Source: Escherichia phage vB_EcoM_TU01. From it: a DNA stretch of 64,000 nucleotides. The position numbers and the translations under genes were made by a program. Shown piece by piece: positions 3,780-54,079 of the stretch. Each line of letters begins with the position of its first letter. Positions within the stretch are counted from its first letter, which is position 1. Location of the stretch: the sequence record MZ560701; one strand, given 5' to 3'. A model generated the notes under the pieces. That model made no database searches. It worked only from the letters and a program-made list of their open reading frames with translations, and had not been told where the DNA came from.

Positions 3780-4035
3780 AGACATCAAAGGCTACAAGCC
3801 GCATACCGATGATAAAATCGGTAAAGTGAACGCTATTAAAGATGCTGAAGTCCGTCTTGGATTGATGTTTGATGCTCTGATTGAAGAAGCATATATCTTG
3901 AAAGAAAATGAAACAGAGCAACAAACCAAAGAAGATATGGATGCAGTGCAGGCTCTTAAGTATGCTAAGCAACATCTAAAAGAAGCTAGTATGTGGGCGT
4001 GTCGTGCAGTATTTCGACCAGAGGAAAAATACTAA
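3769..4035 (+). CDS. hypothetical protein
   Basis: In-frame ATG overlapping upstream stop; 3601 start of the tracked ORF rejected. Confidence 0.45.
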   Translation: MSIEDIKGYKPHTDDKIGKVNAIKDAEVRLGLMFDALIEEAYILKENETEQQTKEDMDAVQALKYAKQHLKEASMWACRAVFRPEEKY

Positions 4036-4250
4036 TGGCTTCTACTATTACTGGGTTATTGGACTTTCAAGAAAAGGTCAACAAAATTTGTAGTGAATAC
4101 TTAAAGTATCTTGAAGAAGACNTTGAAGATTGTAAGGAAGAAGGCGAAGAAGACTATGCTGACCAGCGTCGTCGCCAAATCGAAGAGATGAGGCATTTCG
4201 CCGATATGGTATCTAAAGAATCTTGGGCTTTAACTCCATTTTATCAATAA
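4035..4250 (+). CDS. hypothetical acidic protein
   Basis: TAATG overlap start. Confidence 0.4.
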   Translation: MASTITGLLDFQEKVNKICSEYLKYLEEDXEDCKEEGEEDYADQRRRQIEEMRHFADMVSKESWALTPFYQ

Positions 4251-4311: not shown

Positions 4312-4770
4312 ATGACTATCAATTCAGACGTTTTTATCCGCCGTAATAAACTCCGTCGAATCTTTGAAACGGAGTTCCGCAAAATAAATGCCGGTATAAA
4401 AGATGCTGCAAAGTCTCTTGGACTACCAGGCTTTCATATCAAGTATTCTCAACATCTCTTAGATCGTGCCATCCAGAGAGAAATAGATGAGAACTACGTT
4501 TTTGAATTATTTCGTAAAGTAAAAAATCATGTTAAAGAAGTTGCAGAATTTTTATCAATGCCGGCACGTCCAGATGTTGATGAAGATTTTGTCGAAGGCG
4601 TCGAATATCGCCCAGGCCGTTTAGAAATAACTGACGGAAATCTTTGGTTAGGACTTACAGTTTGTCGCGAAAATCCAGCATTCAAAATGAAGACTCTTCA
4701 ATGCAGAATGGCTATTATTAACAGTAAACGACTACCAGGAAAAGCTTCTAAAGCAGTGATTAAAATCTAG
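4312..4770 (+). CDS. regB: RegB site-specific endoribonuclease
   Basis: MTINSDVFIRRNKLRR...HIKYSQHLLDRAIQREIDE...RLPGKASKAVIKI closely matches T4 RegB. Confidence 0.93.
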   Translation: MTINSDVFIRRNKLRRIFETEFRKINAGIKDAAKSLGLPGFHIKYSQHLLDRAIQREIDENYVFELFRKVKNHVKEVAEFLSMPARPDVDEDFVEGVEYRPGRLEITDGNLWLGLTVCRENPAFKMKTLQCRMAIINSKRLPGKASKAVIKI

Positions 4771-4778
4771 AGGTAAAC

Positions 4779-5321
4779 ATGAGAAAAGCACTACTCGCTG
4801 GTCTATTTGCTCTTTCGTTATCAGCACATAGCTCCGAGCATACTTTTAGTAATGTCCAACTCGATAACTTGAATTATGCTTATCAGTTTGGGGAACAGTT
4901 TTCTAAGGACGGAAAATTTAAAACGCATGAAAATATGCATAAGAAAGGACTTGGATACATAATGGCCGCAATACTATGGCAGGAATCATCTGCCGGTATT
5001 AATCTTAAAGATAAGAAAGGTCACCATGCGTATGGAATGTTCCAAAATTATCTACCAACAATGAGGGCAAGAATTAACCAGCTTGGTTATAATATGACTG
5101 ATGCCCAAATTAAGAAAATGCTATCTAAGCGGTCTAATTCAGCCAGATGGGCTTATATCGAATTTTCTTATTGGTTAAATATACATAATGGGGATATAAG
5201 AAAAGCTATATCCTCATATAACGCGGGATGGAAGACAAGTGCTGGAAGTAAATATGCTTCTGAAGTCCTAGAAAAGGCCAATTACCTTAAATCAAATAAA
5301 CTACTGGAAATAAAAGAATGA
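4779..5321 (+). CDS. secreted protein, possible lytic transglycosylase-like fold (LWQESSAG...GMFQ)
   Basis: N-terminal signal peptide MRKALLAGLFALSLSAHS; E-S and G-hMFQ motifs resemble SLT domains. Confidence 0.55.
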   Translation: MRKALLAGLFALSLSAHSSEHTFSNVQLDNLNYAYQFGEQFSKDGKFKTHENMHKKGLGYIMAAILWQESSAGINLKDKKGHHAYGMFQNYLPTMRARINQLGYNMTDAQIKKMLSKRSNSARWAYIEFSYWLNIHNGDIRKAISSYNAGWKTSAGSKYASEVLEKANYLKSNKLLEIKE

Positions 5322-5665
5322 CCAAAATGTTGGCTTTAATAGTTGGCTTGGTTTCATTTAACGCTCTTGCTAATACTACATATACTGATATAACGGAGTA
5401 TACAAACAGAACGGCGTCTGATTATTGTGGTCAAAGTCAAGAGTGTAAAGTAGATTTTTCACAAAAATTGTTATATGCGTATAAAGACGGAGAAAAAGAT
5501 GGGGCGTCTAGTAGGTTCAAGGCGTCTACCTTAATTAAAAGATACTATAAAAAATGGCAAATATTAGAATGCTCGGTGGCGGAACCTAAAGATAAGGCAG
5601 CATGCAATTCTATGGTGGACCGTCTAGTTGACTCTTATAATAGAGGACTTGCAGCAAGTGATTAA
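5318..5665 (+). CDS. secreted hypothetical protein (signal peptide, Cys-containing)
   Basis: MTKMLALIVGLVSFNALA leader; ATGA overlap. Confidence 0.5.
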   Translation: MTKMLALIVGLVSFNALANTTYTDITEYTNRTASDYCGQSQECKVDFSQKLLYAYKDGEKDGASSRFKASTLIKRYYKKWQILECSVAEPKDKAACNSMVDRLVDSYNRGLAASD

Positions 5666-6125
5666 AAACTATATCAAGGGCGATATTGTCGCCCTGTTTT
5701 CTAAAGGTAATAATATCGCTCATGGGTGTAATTGTTTTCATACAATGGGCGCCGGTGTGGCAGGACAATTAGCAAAGGCTTATCCAAAAATTCTAGAAGC
5801 TGATAAACTTCAAACCGAATTCGGAGACGAGTCTAAACTCGGGACTTATTCGGTTTATGAAAAATATTTTAAGACCCATAAAGCTTATTGCTTTAATCTT
5901 TATACGCAGTTTGAGCCGGGACCTAATTTTGAGTACTCTGCTTTAATGAATTGTATAATAGAATTAAATGAATTCGGAAAGAATAAGATAACAAAGCCTG
6001 TAATTTATATGCCAAGAATTGGTGCAGGTATTGGTGGTGGAAACTGGGATGTCATCGAAGAGATTTTAGATACGTATTCCACTAAACTAGAAATTGTGAT
6101 TGTTGATTGGGAACCATTATTATGA
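5658..6125 (+). CDS. macro-domain protein (ADP-ribose binding/processing fold), probable GTG start
   Basis: IKNYIKGDIVALFSKGNNIAHGCNCFHTMGAGVAGQL ... IGAGIGGGNW; no in-frame ATG upstream of the domain; GAGGA 10 nt before GTG 5658. Confidence 0.65.
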   Translation: MIKNYIKGDIVALFSKGNNIAHGCNCFHTMGAGVAGQLAKAYPKILEADKLQTEFGDESKLGTYSVYEKYFKTHKAYCFNLYTQFEPGPNFEYSALMNCIIELNEFGKNKITKPVIYMPRIGAGIGGGNWDVIEEILDTYSTKLEIVIVDWEPLL

Positions 6126-6334
6126 ATATACATTATCCACATCCATATGACCCAAAGAATAAGGCAGTAATTATTCGTCAATGGGAACGAATTTGTCGTA
6201 CCAAATGCCCAATTAATAGTCCACATGATGTAGATAAAGACTACATCGGAACATTCGTTGAATATACCTTTATTGATAAGAAAGGCCGTAAACAACATGT
6301 AGAAGAATATTGCTTAAAGGTGACATGGCTATGA
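6122..6334 (+). CDS. hypothetical protein
   Basis: ATGA overlap with macro-domain stop. Confidence 0.4.
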   Translation: MNIHYPHPYDPKNKAVIIRQWERICRTKCPINSPHDVDKDYIGTFVEYTFIDKKGRKQHVEEYCLKVTWL

Positions 6335-6537
6335 GTCAAACAAAAATTCTTACAGGTGCTAAATGCGAAAAATGCGAATGGCCTGTAGTTTTTGCTTTAT
6401 GCAATGACGAAATGGCTTGTGATTTTGATTATTGGTGTTACTGTTCGAACAAAGGTTGTAGCAATCATAAAGGTGAAGGGTTTTACTCAGGATTTTACCC
6501 TTACCCAGATTTCGTTAAAGAAGGTGAACCTAAATGA
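6331..6537 (+). CDS. Cys-rich small protein (possible Zn-binding)
   Basis: CEKCEW...CNDEMACDFDYWCYCSNKGC. Confidence 0.4.
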   Translation: MSQTKILTGAKCEKCEWPVVFALCNDEMACDFDYWCYCSNKGCSNHKGEGFYSGFYPYPDFVKEGEPK

Positions 6538-6716
6538 AATTAACTAAAGAAGAGAAAGCTAAACTGTTTGAACTTATTCATGACCTATTGGATGAGCAAG
6601 CAGCCACCAATGCGTACGATGAATATGCTCCTTTAACAGATGAAGAATATCAAGCATTGATGGAATCATTTGACAGGAAAGAACAAGAACTCATTGACTA
6701 CGTGAATTCACTATAA
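6534..6716 (+). CDS. hypothetical acidic protein
   Basis: ATGA overlap. Confidence 0.4.
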   Translation: MKLTKEEKAKLFELIHDLLDEQAATNAYDEYAPLTDEEYQALMESFDRKEQELIDYVNSL

Positions 6717-6725
6717 GGGACTCTT

Positions 6726-7307
6726 ATGGCTAGTTTAATTTTTACATATGCCGCTATGAACGCTGGTAAGTCTGCTTCATTACTTACTGCCGCACATAAC
6801 TATAAAGAACGTGGCATGGGTGTATTAGTTCTTAAACCGGCTATTGATACTCGCGATTCAAAAGGTGAAATAGTCTCTCGTATTGGTATTCGTCAGGACG
6901 CCAATATAATTACAAAAGACATGGATATCTTTGAATTCTATAAATGGGCTGCAGCACAAAAGGATATTCATTGTGTATTTGTTGACGAAGCTCAGTTCTT
7001 AACTACTGAAAAGGTGTATCAACTTAGTCGTATTGTTGACGTATACAATGTGCCGGTAATGGCATATGGACTACGAACAGATTTTAAAGGTAATCTATTT
7101 GAAGGTTCTCAAGCATTAATGGCTATTGCCGATAAGCTTGTTGAACTTAAAGGTGTCTGTCATTGTGGTAAAAAGGCCACAATGGTAGCTAGAGTCACGG
7201 AAGACGGACTTCCAATTACAGATGGCAGTCAAATTGAAATTGGTGATACCGATAGATATGTGTCATTATGCCGGAAGCATTGGAATGATTTGACAGGGTT
7301 GTTATAA
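6726..7307 (+). CDS. tk: thymidine kinase
   Basis: P-loop AMNAGKSASLL, FVDEAQF, C-terminal CHCGKKATMVARV...LCRKHW zinc ribbon; matches T4 Tk. Confidence 0.93.
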   Translation: MASLIFTYAAMNAGKSASLLTAAHNYKERGMGVLVLKPAIDTRDSKGEIVSRIGIRQDANIITKDMDIFEFYKWAAAQKDIHCVFVDEAQFLTTEKVYQLSRIVDVYNVPVMAYGLRTDFKGNLFEGSQALMAIADKLVELKGVCHCGKKATMVARVTEDGLPITDGSQIEIGDTDRYVSLCRKHWNDLTGLL

Positions 7308-47775: not shown

Positions 47776-48426
47776 ATGATTTATTATATGCACAAAAATG
47801 CGCCATTTAAATATGGTAAATTTCCTAATGCACAATGTTATAATATAACGCCGAATGAAAATAATAACGGATACCATATTGGTGTAATTTTTGTAATTGT
47901 TAAAGATAACGAAATCGTTGCCTGGGCAGATTTTAAAGGTACAACATATGATGTTAATCCAGTGCCTTTCACATATTACAACATAATGGATTTGGCATAT
48001 GATTATAACTGGTTTAATCATGACGCGTTGGCTCATATTGAAGGTGTAGGATTTGACATCTCTTATTCTAGCTATTCATTATGTCCTATGAGCCGAGCTC
48101 ACGGTAAAGATGCATCATATCTTTCAATTCGGAAACGTGTAAACTTCAAACGTAGCACAGAGTATGTTGGTGGACTCTTTGTTAAAGATAATAAAATAAC
48201 CCGTATTAGTTATCCTTTAAGTGTAGGTCAAAAAGATGTTGATGTTGATTTAGACTTAACCGAAAATAACATTAATCATATTGCTTCTGTATATTTTGAT
48301 ATCGATGAAAAAATTGTAGTGTGTGGATACGAATTACCACCTGAAGAAAAGGCTGAAGCAATTGAAGTCGAATTAGAAATTTCTGTTGATGACCAAATAT
48401 TTAATGCATTTATGAATCGAGGTTAA
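47776..48426 (+). CDS. hypothetical protein
   Basis: start refined to ATG 47776. Confidence 0.5.
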   Translation: MIYYMHKNAPFKYGKFPNAQCYNITPNENNNGYHIGVIFVIVKDNEIVAWADFKGTTYDVNPVPFTYYNIMDLAYDYNWFNHDALAHIEGVGFDISYSSYSLCPMSRAHGKDASYLSIRKRVNFKRSTEYVGGLFVKDNKITRISYPLSVGQKDVDVDLDLTENNINHIASVYFDIDEKIVVCGYELPPEEKAEAIEVELEISVDDQIFNAFMNRG

Positions 48427-52831: not shown

Positions 52832-53413
52832 ATGACATGTCAATCTGAACTTCAAGAACGTGAATACCTAACAAATCTGATTGATAGCAAATTCACCCGC
52901 CAAGAACAAAACATTCTCTGGGCTTGCACCGATTCTAAGGAAGACCCGGATTTCCACTATGAATTAGACCATCTTGTTCGTAAGCATATGACTTCTACAG
53001 TACCAGTAGAACTCTACCGTGGTGTAACTCCAGAAGAAGTAGAACGTCTTTCACTTCTTTCTGTTGGATGCCATTGGTCTCCTGGACGAGTAACATCGTT
53101 CACAACTGATTTCAGTACAGCTCGTCAATTCTCCGGGAGATGGGAATATCAGACGTACACTATTCTTAGTCTCAGGAATGCTCCATTCATTTTTGATTAC
53201 TACCAAAACATGGTTAACATTGTACTTGCCGGAAAGAACCCTAAGCATGTTATGGAAGAAACTCGTNTNGATGTCCTAGATATGATTGAATCTGAACAAG
53301 AGTACATGGTCTCAGGTATCTCTAGATTTGAGATTGTGGAAATTGAAGACTTAGAATATGACCCTTTATCTCGATTATACAAAATCATTCATTTAAAAAT
53401 GTTGAATTTTTAG
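52832..53413 (+). CDS. modB: ADP-ribosyltransferase, ModB-like by position
   Basis: R-S-E class motifs: ELYRG, SFTTDFSTAR, EQEYMV; paralogue of next gene. Confidence 0.7.
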   Translation: MTCQSELQEREYLTNLIDSKFTRQEQNILWACTDSKEDPDFHYELDHLVRKHMTSTVPVELYRGVTPEEVERLSLLSVGCHWSPGRVTSFTTDFSTARQFSGRWEYQTYTILSLRNAPFIFDYYQNMVNIVLAGKNPKHVMEETRXDVLDMIESEQEYMVSGISRFEIVEIEDLEYDPLSRLYKIIHLKMLNF

Positions 53414-53470: not shown

Positions 53471-54079
53471 ATGTTTATGCCGTATAATGAATGTGAAATT
53501 GAGGAAATGGTTCGACGTGCNCAAAACCCCGAATATCAAGATGTATTGCAGTACGAAATNGATAGTCAATTCAGCGACATTGAACAAAGTGTACTGTGGC
53601 AATGTATGGAAAACAAGCCAGACAGCATCCAACAAGATTTAAGTGCAATTGTTCGTAGAAATTGGTCNTCTTCNGTTCCTGAGACAATGTATCGTGGAAT
53701 CTCTAAGAAAACTATGGCCACACTCGACGATAAAGGCNTTGGTAGTATTATTAAATTTGACAGAGTAATGAGCTTTAGTCCGGTGTTCGGTGTAGCACGT
53801 AACTTCGCTTCATATAATTTTTATGGAACATTTAATATGTTCTGCATCAAAGATGCACCATTTGCTTTCAACTTCCGTGAACATATGCTTAATATGATTC
53901 TGGCTGCACCATCTTGTGAGTTCAATGGAGCTTTCCCTGAAGCGACAAGACGGTCTAATGCTAGACTTATATCTGACGAATGTGAATTTATGCTCCCTAT
54001 AGGGACTACACTGCGTGTAGATTCTATTATTCAAGATGGACGTTATACAATCTGGAATCTGTCTATTGTCAGTTACTGA
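53471..54079 (+). CDS. modA: ADP-ribosyltransferase, ModA-like by position
   Basis: TMYRG, SFSPVFGVAR, ECEFML motifs; paralogue of modB-like. Confidence 0.7.
   Translation: MFMPYNECEIEEMVRRXQNPEYQDVLQYEXDSQFSDIEQSVLWQCMENKPDSIQQDLSAIVRRNWXSXVPETMYRGISKKTMATLDDKGXGSIIKFDRVMSFSPVFGVARNFASYNFYGTFNMFCIKDAPFAFNFREHMLNMILAAPSCEFNGAFPEATRRSNARLISDECEFMLPIGTTLRVDSIIQDGRYTIWNLSIVSY

Follow-up and report, generated by a model that had tools for sequence, protein, structure and literature searches.

The subject of this study was a gene at positions 5658-6125 of a 64,000-nucleotide stretch of DNA from Escherichia phage vB_EcoM_TU01 (sequence record MZ560701), the whole of which is called the window below. 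The window belongs to a Mosigvirus, an RB69-like T-even phage; a megablast search with positions 5000-6800 returned 657 phage records, and the best matches, at 98-99.8% identity, were Mosigvirus. A first-pass annotation had proposed that this open reading frame (ORF) encodes a macro-domain protein with a non-ATG start, which might reverse or read the phage's own ADP-ribosylation or counter host ADP-ribosylation defenses such as DarT. We found that the ORF, judged by its sequence, is the RB69-type (Mosigvirus) ortholog of tk.4 of phage T4. The T4 gene was recently renamed adfM; its window ortholog encodes a macrodomain protein of one domain, an orphan, whose probable role is to shield the phage from the toxin-antitoxin defense DarTG2. 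The coding sequence and the residues of its putative active site were as follows.

5658-6125, plus strand: tk.4 / adfM coding sequence, 155 amino acids, single-domain macrodomain, GTG start, TGA stop at 6123-6125
5721-5732, plus strand: residues H22-G23-C24-N25 in the active-site loop HGCNC; the counterparts of H22 and N25 are H24 and N27 in SCO6735, and that of N25 in PhiKZ gp104 is N23
5907-5909, plus strand: Q84 (CAG), standing where TARG1 and DarG have their catalytic Lys (K84 and K80, respectively); its counterpart in SCO6735 is the essential Q85
6021-6041, plus strand: glycine-rich, phosphate-binding loop GAGIGGG (G122-G128); the SCO6735 counterparts of G122 and G124 are G126 and G128

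Gene identity, macro fold and active site

The window protein was 99% identical to RB69 Tk.4 (NP_861803), and 131 of its 155 residues (85%) were identical to those of T4 Tk.4 (NP_049723) with no gaps. The T4 and RB69 proteins have the same length of 155 amino acids, their genes occupy the same slot between vs and tk.3/tk.2, and translation begins at the same codon; every residue invariant in the family was present in the window protein. Using tblastn, Tk.4-like relatives were detected in 2,799 phage records, including phages of Pseudomonas, Vibrio, Acinetobacter, and Aeromonas, and ORF 5658-6125 is therefore not a chance ORF. In Acinetobacter phage vB_AbaM_14/CRR8 (PV611675, 85607-86062), the Tk.4-like macro gene adjoins a nicotinamide phosphoribosyltransferase gene, which hints at a link with the salvage of nicotinamide adenine dinucleotide (NAD) in some lineages. 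Deposited genomes label tk.4 variously as "phosphatase", "macro domain protein", or "hypothetical protein".

The macro domain was confirmed by a profile search, a structural model, and a structural comparison. The Pfam Macro profile (PF01661) matched the protein at 28.1 bits (E=2.2e-6), above its gathering cut-off of 22 bits, and the match covered profile positions 2-117 of 118. An AlphaFold2 model, built from a 51-sequence family alignment, had a mean predicted local distance difference test score (pLDDT) of 94.9 and a predicted template modeling score (pTM) of 0.90, and agreed with the three-layer alpha/beta/alpha architecture of macrodomains. When this model was compared with the PDB by Foldseek, all 50 matches listed were macrodomains or macro-derived designs with a probability of 1.00, the best being TARG1, Poa1p, BT1257, and DarG macrodomains. 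The sole NCBIfam match was the macro region of DarG (NF048014, positions 4-146 of 338), at 31.9 bits against an equivalog cut-off of 250. The probabilities obtained by hhalign were 98.7% for SCO6735/BT1257, 98.5% for DarG, and 98.3% for TARG1. By these comparisons, the Tk.4 family forms a clade of its own within the ALC1/TARG1-like class of macrodomains, approximately equidistant from SCO6735, DarG, and TARG1.

Conservation was then read from the same family alignment. Q84, H22, G122, and G124 were each present in 51 of 51 sequences, and N25 in 50. Both MAFFT and hhalign aligned Q84 with K84 of TARG1 and with the Lys in the FPTK motif of DarG. In the hhalign comparison with SCO6735/BT1257/ALC1 it was paired with Q85 of SCO6735, whose numbering was confirmed by means of ten residues that the SCO6735 paper names. 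At the level of aligned residues, the Tk.4 family combines a SCO6735-like active site with a Poa1p-like HxCNC loop. ADP-ribose would be bound through the conserved glycine loops at residues 31-33 and 122-128.

The GTG initiation codon and the surrounding genes

The 5' end of tk.4 overlaps the upstream gene vs, and contains a hairpin within its coding sequence.

5318-5665, plus strand: vs, valyl-tRNA synthetase modifier, the upstream gene (PHROG 1256, E=1.7e-35), TAA stop at 5663-5665
5644-5648, plus strand: Shine-Dalgarno sequence GAGGA, with a 9-nucleotide spacer to the GTG, kept in relatives
5658-5660, plus strand: GTG initiation codon, the homolog of the T4 tk.4 ATG, annotated in RefSeq NC_041863 and NC_004928
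5677-5695, plus strand: terminator-like hairpin followed by a U-rich run, inside tk.4 codons 7-13, kept in T4 and called "terminator" in MH243438

The window GTG aligned codon for codon with the annotated ATG of T4 tk.4, which forms part of an ATGA overlap with the vs stop. Among 48 IMG/VR loci, the homologous start codon was ATG in most clades whose alignment reaches residue 1, and GTG in the three Mosigvirus-type loci and, independently, in one locus designated L013. L013 belongs to a clade further removed (56% identity; VIKEYIKGDIV...), and has its GTG, at position 1501, in the homologous start codon. GTG was also found in 8 of 8 Mosigvirus-type loci fetched, RB69 included, in addition to the window, whereas Tequatrovirus loci carried ATG. 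These eight fetches represent seven distinct phages (L001, L002/L055, L004-L006, L053, and L054). Since GTG occurred in every independent Mosigvirus genome examined, a sequencing error hiding a conventional ATG was ruled out, and the non-ATG start proposed earlier was upheld by the alignment of relatives, by the GAGGA sequence, and by this uniform occurrence.

The TAA stop of vs lies 3 nucleotides past the GTG, giving the 8-nucleotide overlap GTGATTAA, so that translational coupling of tk.4 to vs is expected. In T4 the two genes overlap by 4 nucleotides (ATGA) instead, owing to a 1-nucleotide indel near the end of vs (window 5650-5665; approximately 3887-3900 of L003 for T4), which changes the vs C-terminus from ...GLSTR* in T4 to ...GLAASD* in the window. 

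Other candidate start codons were considered and rejected. Neither of the upstream in-frame TTG codons (5628 and 5649) has a usable Shine-Dalgarno sequence, and the codon at 5649 is TCG in L006. An in-frame TAG stands two codons 5' to the GTG in L004 and L005, both 99%-identical relatives, and therefore excludes the upstream TTGs as starts in those genomes. The first-pass annotation was wrong in stating that no in-frame ATG exists, as ATG codons occur at 5745 (M30), 5946 (M97), and 6009 (M118). The conclusion of a GTG start is unaffected, as all three fall within the conserved fold. Initiation at 5745 would remove residues 1-29, which are conserved and modeled with a pLDDT of 94-97, and with them strands 1-2, a helix, and the invariant H22/N25. 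Several deposited Mosigvirus genomes, for example those of JN02 and NBG1 (records MT782071 and MH243438), nevertheless start the gene at this ATG, resulting in a truncated 126-residue protein. Such internal-ATG annotations yield a product lacking the catalytic His and Asn, and the label "phosphatase" is likewise misleading.

GTG is an infrequent start in these genomes, being used by 2 of 95 RefSeq coding sequences across 42 kb of NC_041863, a close relative; tk.4 is one of the two. The alignments indicate that the GTG start is genuine, and uncommon but ordinary: the initiation site is conserved and coupled, and its ATG was replaced by GTG in this lineage. Nothing unusual in initiation, as had been implied, needs to be invoked: the GTG is of the ordinary kind, supported by a Shine-Dalgarno sequence and by coupling, and is already annotated in RB69 and other RefSeq records.

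The hairpin within codons 7-13 reads AGGGCGAU-AUU-GUCGCCCU followed by GUUUUCU (window 5677-5705), and is missing in more distant homologs that have other residues at positions 12-13. In the minimum-energy fold of the window sequence, the U-run pairs with the Shine-Dalgarno region (z = -2.65). As this pairing was not reproduced in the T4 fold, masking of the Shine-Dalgarno sequence through the U-run was dropped as a conserved feature.

The remaining genes of the neighborhood were as follows.

4312-4770: regB, part of the local gene order
4779-5321: vs.1, with weak SLT similarity
6122-6334, plus strand: tk.3-like gene (DUF7202; PF23832, E=1.6e-38), the downstream gene, whose ATG overlaps the tk.4 stop as ATGA
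6726-7307: tk, preceded by further small ORFs after the tk.3-like gene

The gene order around tk.4 (regB–vs.1–vs–tk.4–tk.3–tk.2–tk) is common to the window, T4, and RB69. The tk.3-like DUF7202 gene is absent from RB69 itself, where tk.2 directly follows tk.4. Two further observations were made elsewhere in the window. A base N at about 4122-4124 produces an "X" in the translation of ORF 3993-4250. The plus-strand gene at 47776-48426 encodes a homolog of T4 gp61.2 (66% identity), which we take to be AdfA, the anti-DarT1 factor in which an R164H change presumably matters in RB69.

A probable role in countering DarTG2, and the alternatives

Of the functions proposed earlier for the protein, countering DarT, which had been put second to reversing or reading the phage's own ADP-ribosylation, is supported by published genetics of the T4 ortholog. 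When T4 was analyzed by transposon sequencing on a DarTG2 host (HIDEN-SEQ), tk.4 was the single significant hit, a clean tk.4 deletion sensitized T4 to DarTG2, and the gene was named adfM; the authors inferred that AdfM removes ADP-ribose from DNA (bioRxiv 10.1101/2025.11.20.689424). T2 and T4 lacking the NADAR enzyme AdfN stay resistant to DarTG2 (PMC11825919), which is consistent with a separate anti-DarT2 factor. Based on the 85% identity, the synteny, and the retention of all family-invariant residues, the window gene most probably encodes the same anti-DarT factor.

The catalytic residues of better-studied macrodomains offer a guide to how the protein might work. In DarG, mutation of K80 inactivates the protein (PMC5179494). 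SCO6735 has no catalytic Lys, cleaves thymidine-linked ADP-ribose on DNA, and guards Streptomyces from DarT; its Q85A mutant is dead, N27, H24, and G128 are also important, and G128E is impaired (PMC9411070). Mutagenesis has likewise been reported for gp104, in which N23 is the equivalent of N25 (PMC13309987). By analogy, the RB69-type protein would protect as T4 Tk.4 does, by hydrolyzing thymidine-linked ADP-ribose through a Gln mechanism. During infection, DarT2 would ADP-ribosylate thymidines in single-stranded phage DNA, leading to a block of replication. Tk.4 would be made from the prereplicative regB–vs–tk cluster, with translation from the GTG at 5658 coupled to termination of vs. The modified DNA would present its ADP-ribose to the macro pocket, where the two glycine loops may hold it, and hydrolysis of the ribose–thymine bond would restore normal DNA. 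The catalytic chemistry probably resembles that of SCO6735: Q84, held by N25, would position the distal ribose for attack by water. This proposed Gln chemistry would be unlike that of the Lys-dependent DarG and TARG1.

Several points weigh against this interpretation. The functional evidence consists solely of the T4 knockout phenotype, and comes from a preprint (bioRxiv 10.1101/2025.11.20.689424). The catalytic Lys of DarG and PhiKZ gp104 is not present in the window protein, and the DNA-positioning lysines of SCO6735 are without clear equivalents, K34 corresponding to A32 (A/S/G in the family) and K89 falling in an indel region. K60, a residue particular to the family (47 K and 4 R), might substitute for these lysines. 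In sequence, the similarity to Poa1p of yeast, which is an ADP-ribose-1''-phosphate phosphatase, is roughly as high as that to any hydrolase acting on DNA. Moreover, the GTG start may result in lower expression than in T4.

We considered whether the protein might instead block DarT2 stoichiometrically, by binding the toxin or its DNA product without hydrolysis. AdfA and AdfB bind DarT directly. Although catalytically dead, the Q85A mutant of SCO6735 retains inhibition of DarT in vitro, and inhibits it more strongly than DarG and TARG1 mutants do (PMC9411070). On the other hand, the isolated DarG macrodomain with K80A does not inhibit DarT (PMC5179494), and Tk.4 has no extra DarT-binding domain, with 155 residues versus the 338 positions of the DarG model. 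The residues used by SCO6735 for hydrolysis are strictly kept across the Tk.4 family, which argues for selection on catalysis. A purely stoichiometric block is therefore unlikely, and stoichiometric inhibition of DarT2 is possible as an additional activity.

The label "phosphatase" raises the question of whether the protein is an ADP-ribose-1''-phosphate phosphatase like Poa1p, or another hydrolase of small-molecule ADP-ribose or NAD metabolites. An "A1pp phosphatase motif" is noted in the T4 and RB69 records, and PHROG 335 is labeled "phosphatase". In a phmmer search, Poa1p was matched at E=1e-8 over the N-terminal 95 residues only; HGCNC resembles the HSCNC of Poa1p, H22 and T29 align with its H23 and S30, and Poa1p gave the highest Foldseek TM-score (0.80). 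The label, however, is the historical name of the macro (A1pp) domain with no assay behind it, and weak Appr-1''-p phosphatase side activity is common among macrodomains. No phage or E. coli pathway has an obvious need for such an enzyme during infection, and the DarTG2-specific phenotype of the T4 knockout would be left unexplained. We regard this function as quite improbable.

The suggestion that the protein erases or reads the phage's own ADP-ribosylation, as made by Alt/ModA/ModB-type enzymes on host RNA polymerase and translation proteins, draws on the general behavior of macrodomains, which read or erase ADP-ribose, and on the claim that the phage encodes two ADP-ribosyltransferases. The latter was correct, as queries with T4 ModA/ModB identified two adjacent Mod-like genes at 30-38% identity.

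About 52889-53344, plus strand: Mod-like ADP-ribosyltransferase ORF
About 53477-54070, plus strand: Mod-like ADP-ribosyltransferase ORF

These genes are separated from tk.4 by approximately 47 kb and do not share its transcription. While Tk.4-like macrodomains occur in the 2,799 phage records across many genera, ModB-like transferases were found in 1,010, all under enterobacterial host names, showing that the macrodomain is not tied to the Mod enzymes. Alt, ModA, and ModB form arginine N-glycosidic ADP-ribose, a linkage handled by ARH/DraG-type enzymes, and we know of no macrodomain that cleaves Arg-ADP-ribose. The only reported phenotype of T4 tk.4 is DarTG2-specific. A functional link to the Mod transferases was thus rejected on distribution and chemistry, and this role is very improbable. 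It is equally hard to credit that DarTG2 is one of several targets and that the main one is another ADP-ribose-based host defense (CmdTAC-like mRNA ADP-ribosylation, O-acetyl-ADP-ribose, or ADP-ribose-derived signals of Sir2/TIR systems). In favor of this, virulent phages that are unrelated to one another very commonly carry the family, and promiscuity is frequent among ALC1-like macrodomains, SCO6735 also acting on protein substrates (PMC9411070). Against it, there is no support for any target besides DarTG2, and CmdTAC still works against T-even phages carrying tk.4 (PMC11618068).

Taken as a discovery, the gene carries little weight. RefSeq has contained it, together with the macro domain and the GTG start, ever since deposition of the RB69 genome, and the action of the T4 ortholog against DarTG2 has been public since 2025. 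The residual points are small, namely the Gln-type mechanism, the 5' hairpin, and the level of expression from GTG.

Comparison with known macrodomains

A parallel to Tk.4 is found in SCO6735 of Streptomyces coelicolor (PDB 5e3b) and BT1257 of Bacteroides (2fg1/2afc), ALC1-like macrodomains that likewise consist of a single domain. SCO6735 has a Gln where DarG and TARG1 carry the catalytic Lys, shares the His, Asn, and Gly-loop residues with Tk.4, and counters DarT although it lies outside any darTG operon. The proteins differ in that identity is approximately 23%, K34 and K89 are not kept in Tk.4, and SCO6735 and BT1257 are chromosomal whereas Tk.4 is phage-encoded. Tk.4 also carries a CNC motif and is without the insertion of 5-6 residues after the Gln.

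The DarG macrodomains (T. aquaticus 5m31/5m3e and M. tuberculosis 5m3i) belong to the same fold class (Foldseek probability 1.0, TM-score approximately 0.73), have the conserved Asn (N22 in DarG, N25 in Tk.4), and presumably act on the same substrate, DarT2-modified thymidine. In contrast to DarG, Tk.4 lacks a C-terminal DarT-binding domain, has Gln instead of the FPTK Lys, and is encoded beside vs and tk.3 rather than beside darT. With Gln in place of the DarG Lys, the mechanism of SCO6735, and not that of DarG, is the template for mutagenesis and inhibitor work. Human TARG1/OARD1 (PDB 4j5q-s) gave the best Foldseek E-value (2e-10), and TARG1 is reported also to strip thymidine-linked ADP-ribose from DNA (PMC8501950). 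It differs by its K84/D125 dyad, in place of which the window protein has Q84 and a glycine-loop residue at the Asp position. Yeast Poa1p (PDB 6lfq-6lfu) resembles Tk.4 in the N-terminal half and the H-x-C-N-C loop, and the catalytic Lys is missing in both. Poa1p differs in being a small-molecule phosphatase with a divergent C-terminal half and no link to DNA ADP-ribosylation.

PhiKZ gp104, also named "AdfM" (Cell Rep 2026, PMC13309987), is like Tk.4 a phage orphan macrodomain countering DarTG2, and its removal of DarT2-derived ADP-ribose from DNA was shown biochemically (PMC13309987). Its macro subfamily is a different one: gp104 retains the lysine of the FPTK motif and is matched to DarG at E=1e-24, and BLASTP between gp104 and the window protein returned one local match of 23 residues (23.9 bits). 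Two phage macrodomains that are not orthologs, T4 Tk.4 with Gln and the DarG-like PhiKZ gp104 with Lys, have therefore each been named AdfM, independently of one another, and the name is now shared by two unrelated macro subfamilies. As a tentative extension of this comparison, Tk.4-type AdfM could be a mechanistically distinct, Gln-dependent DNA de-ADP-ribosylase like SCO6735, which virulent phages recruited independently of the Lys-dependent one of PhiKZ, its dosage in T-even phages being tuned by the GTG start (in the RB69 lineage), the coupling to vs, and the hairpin.

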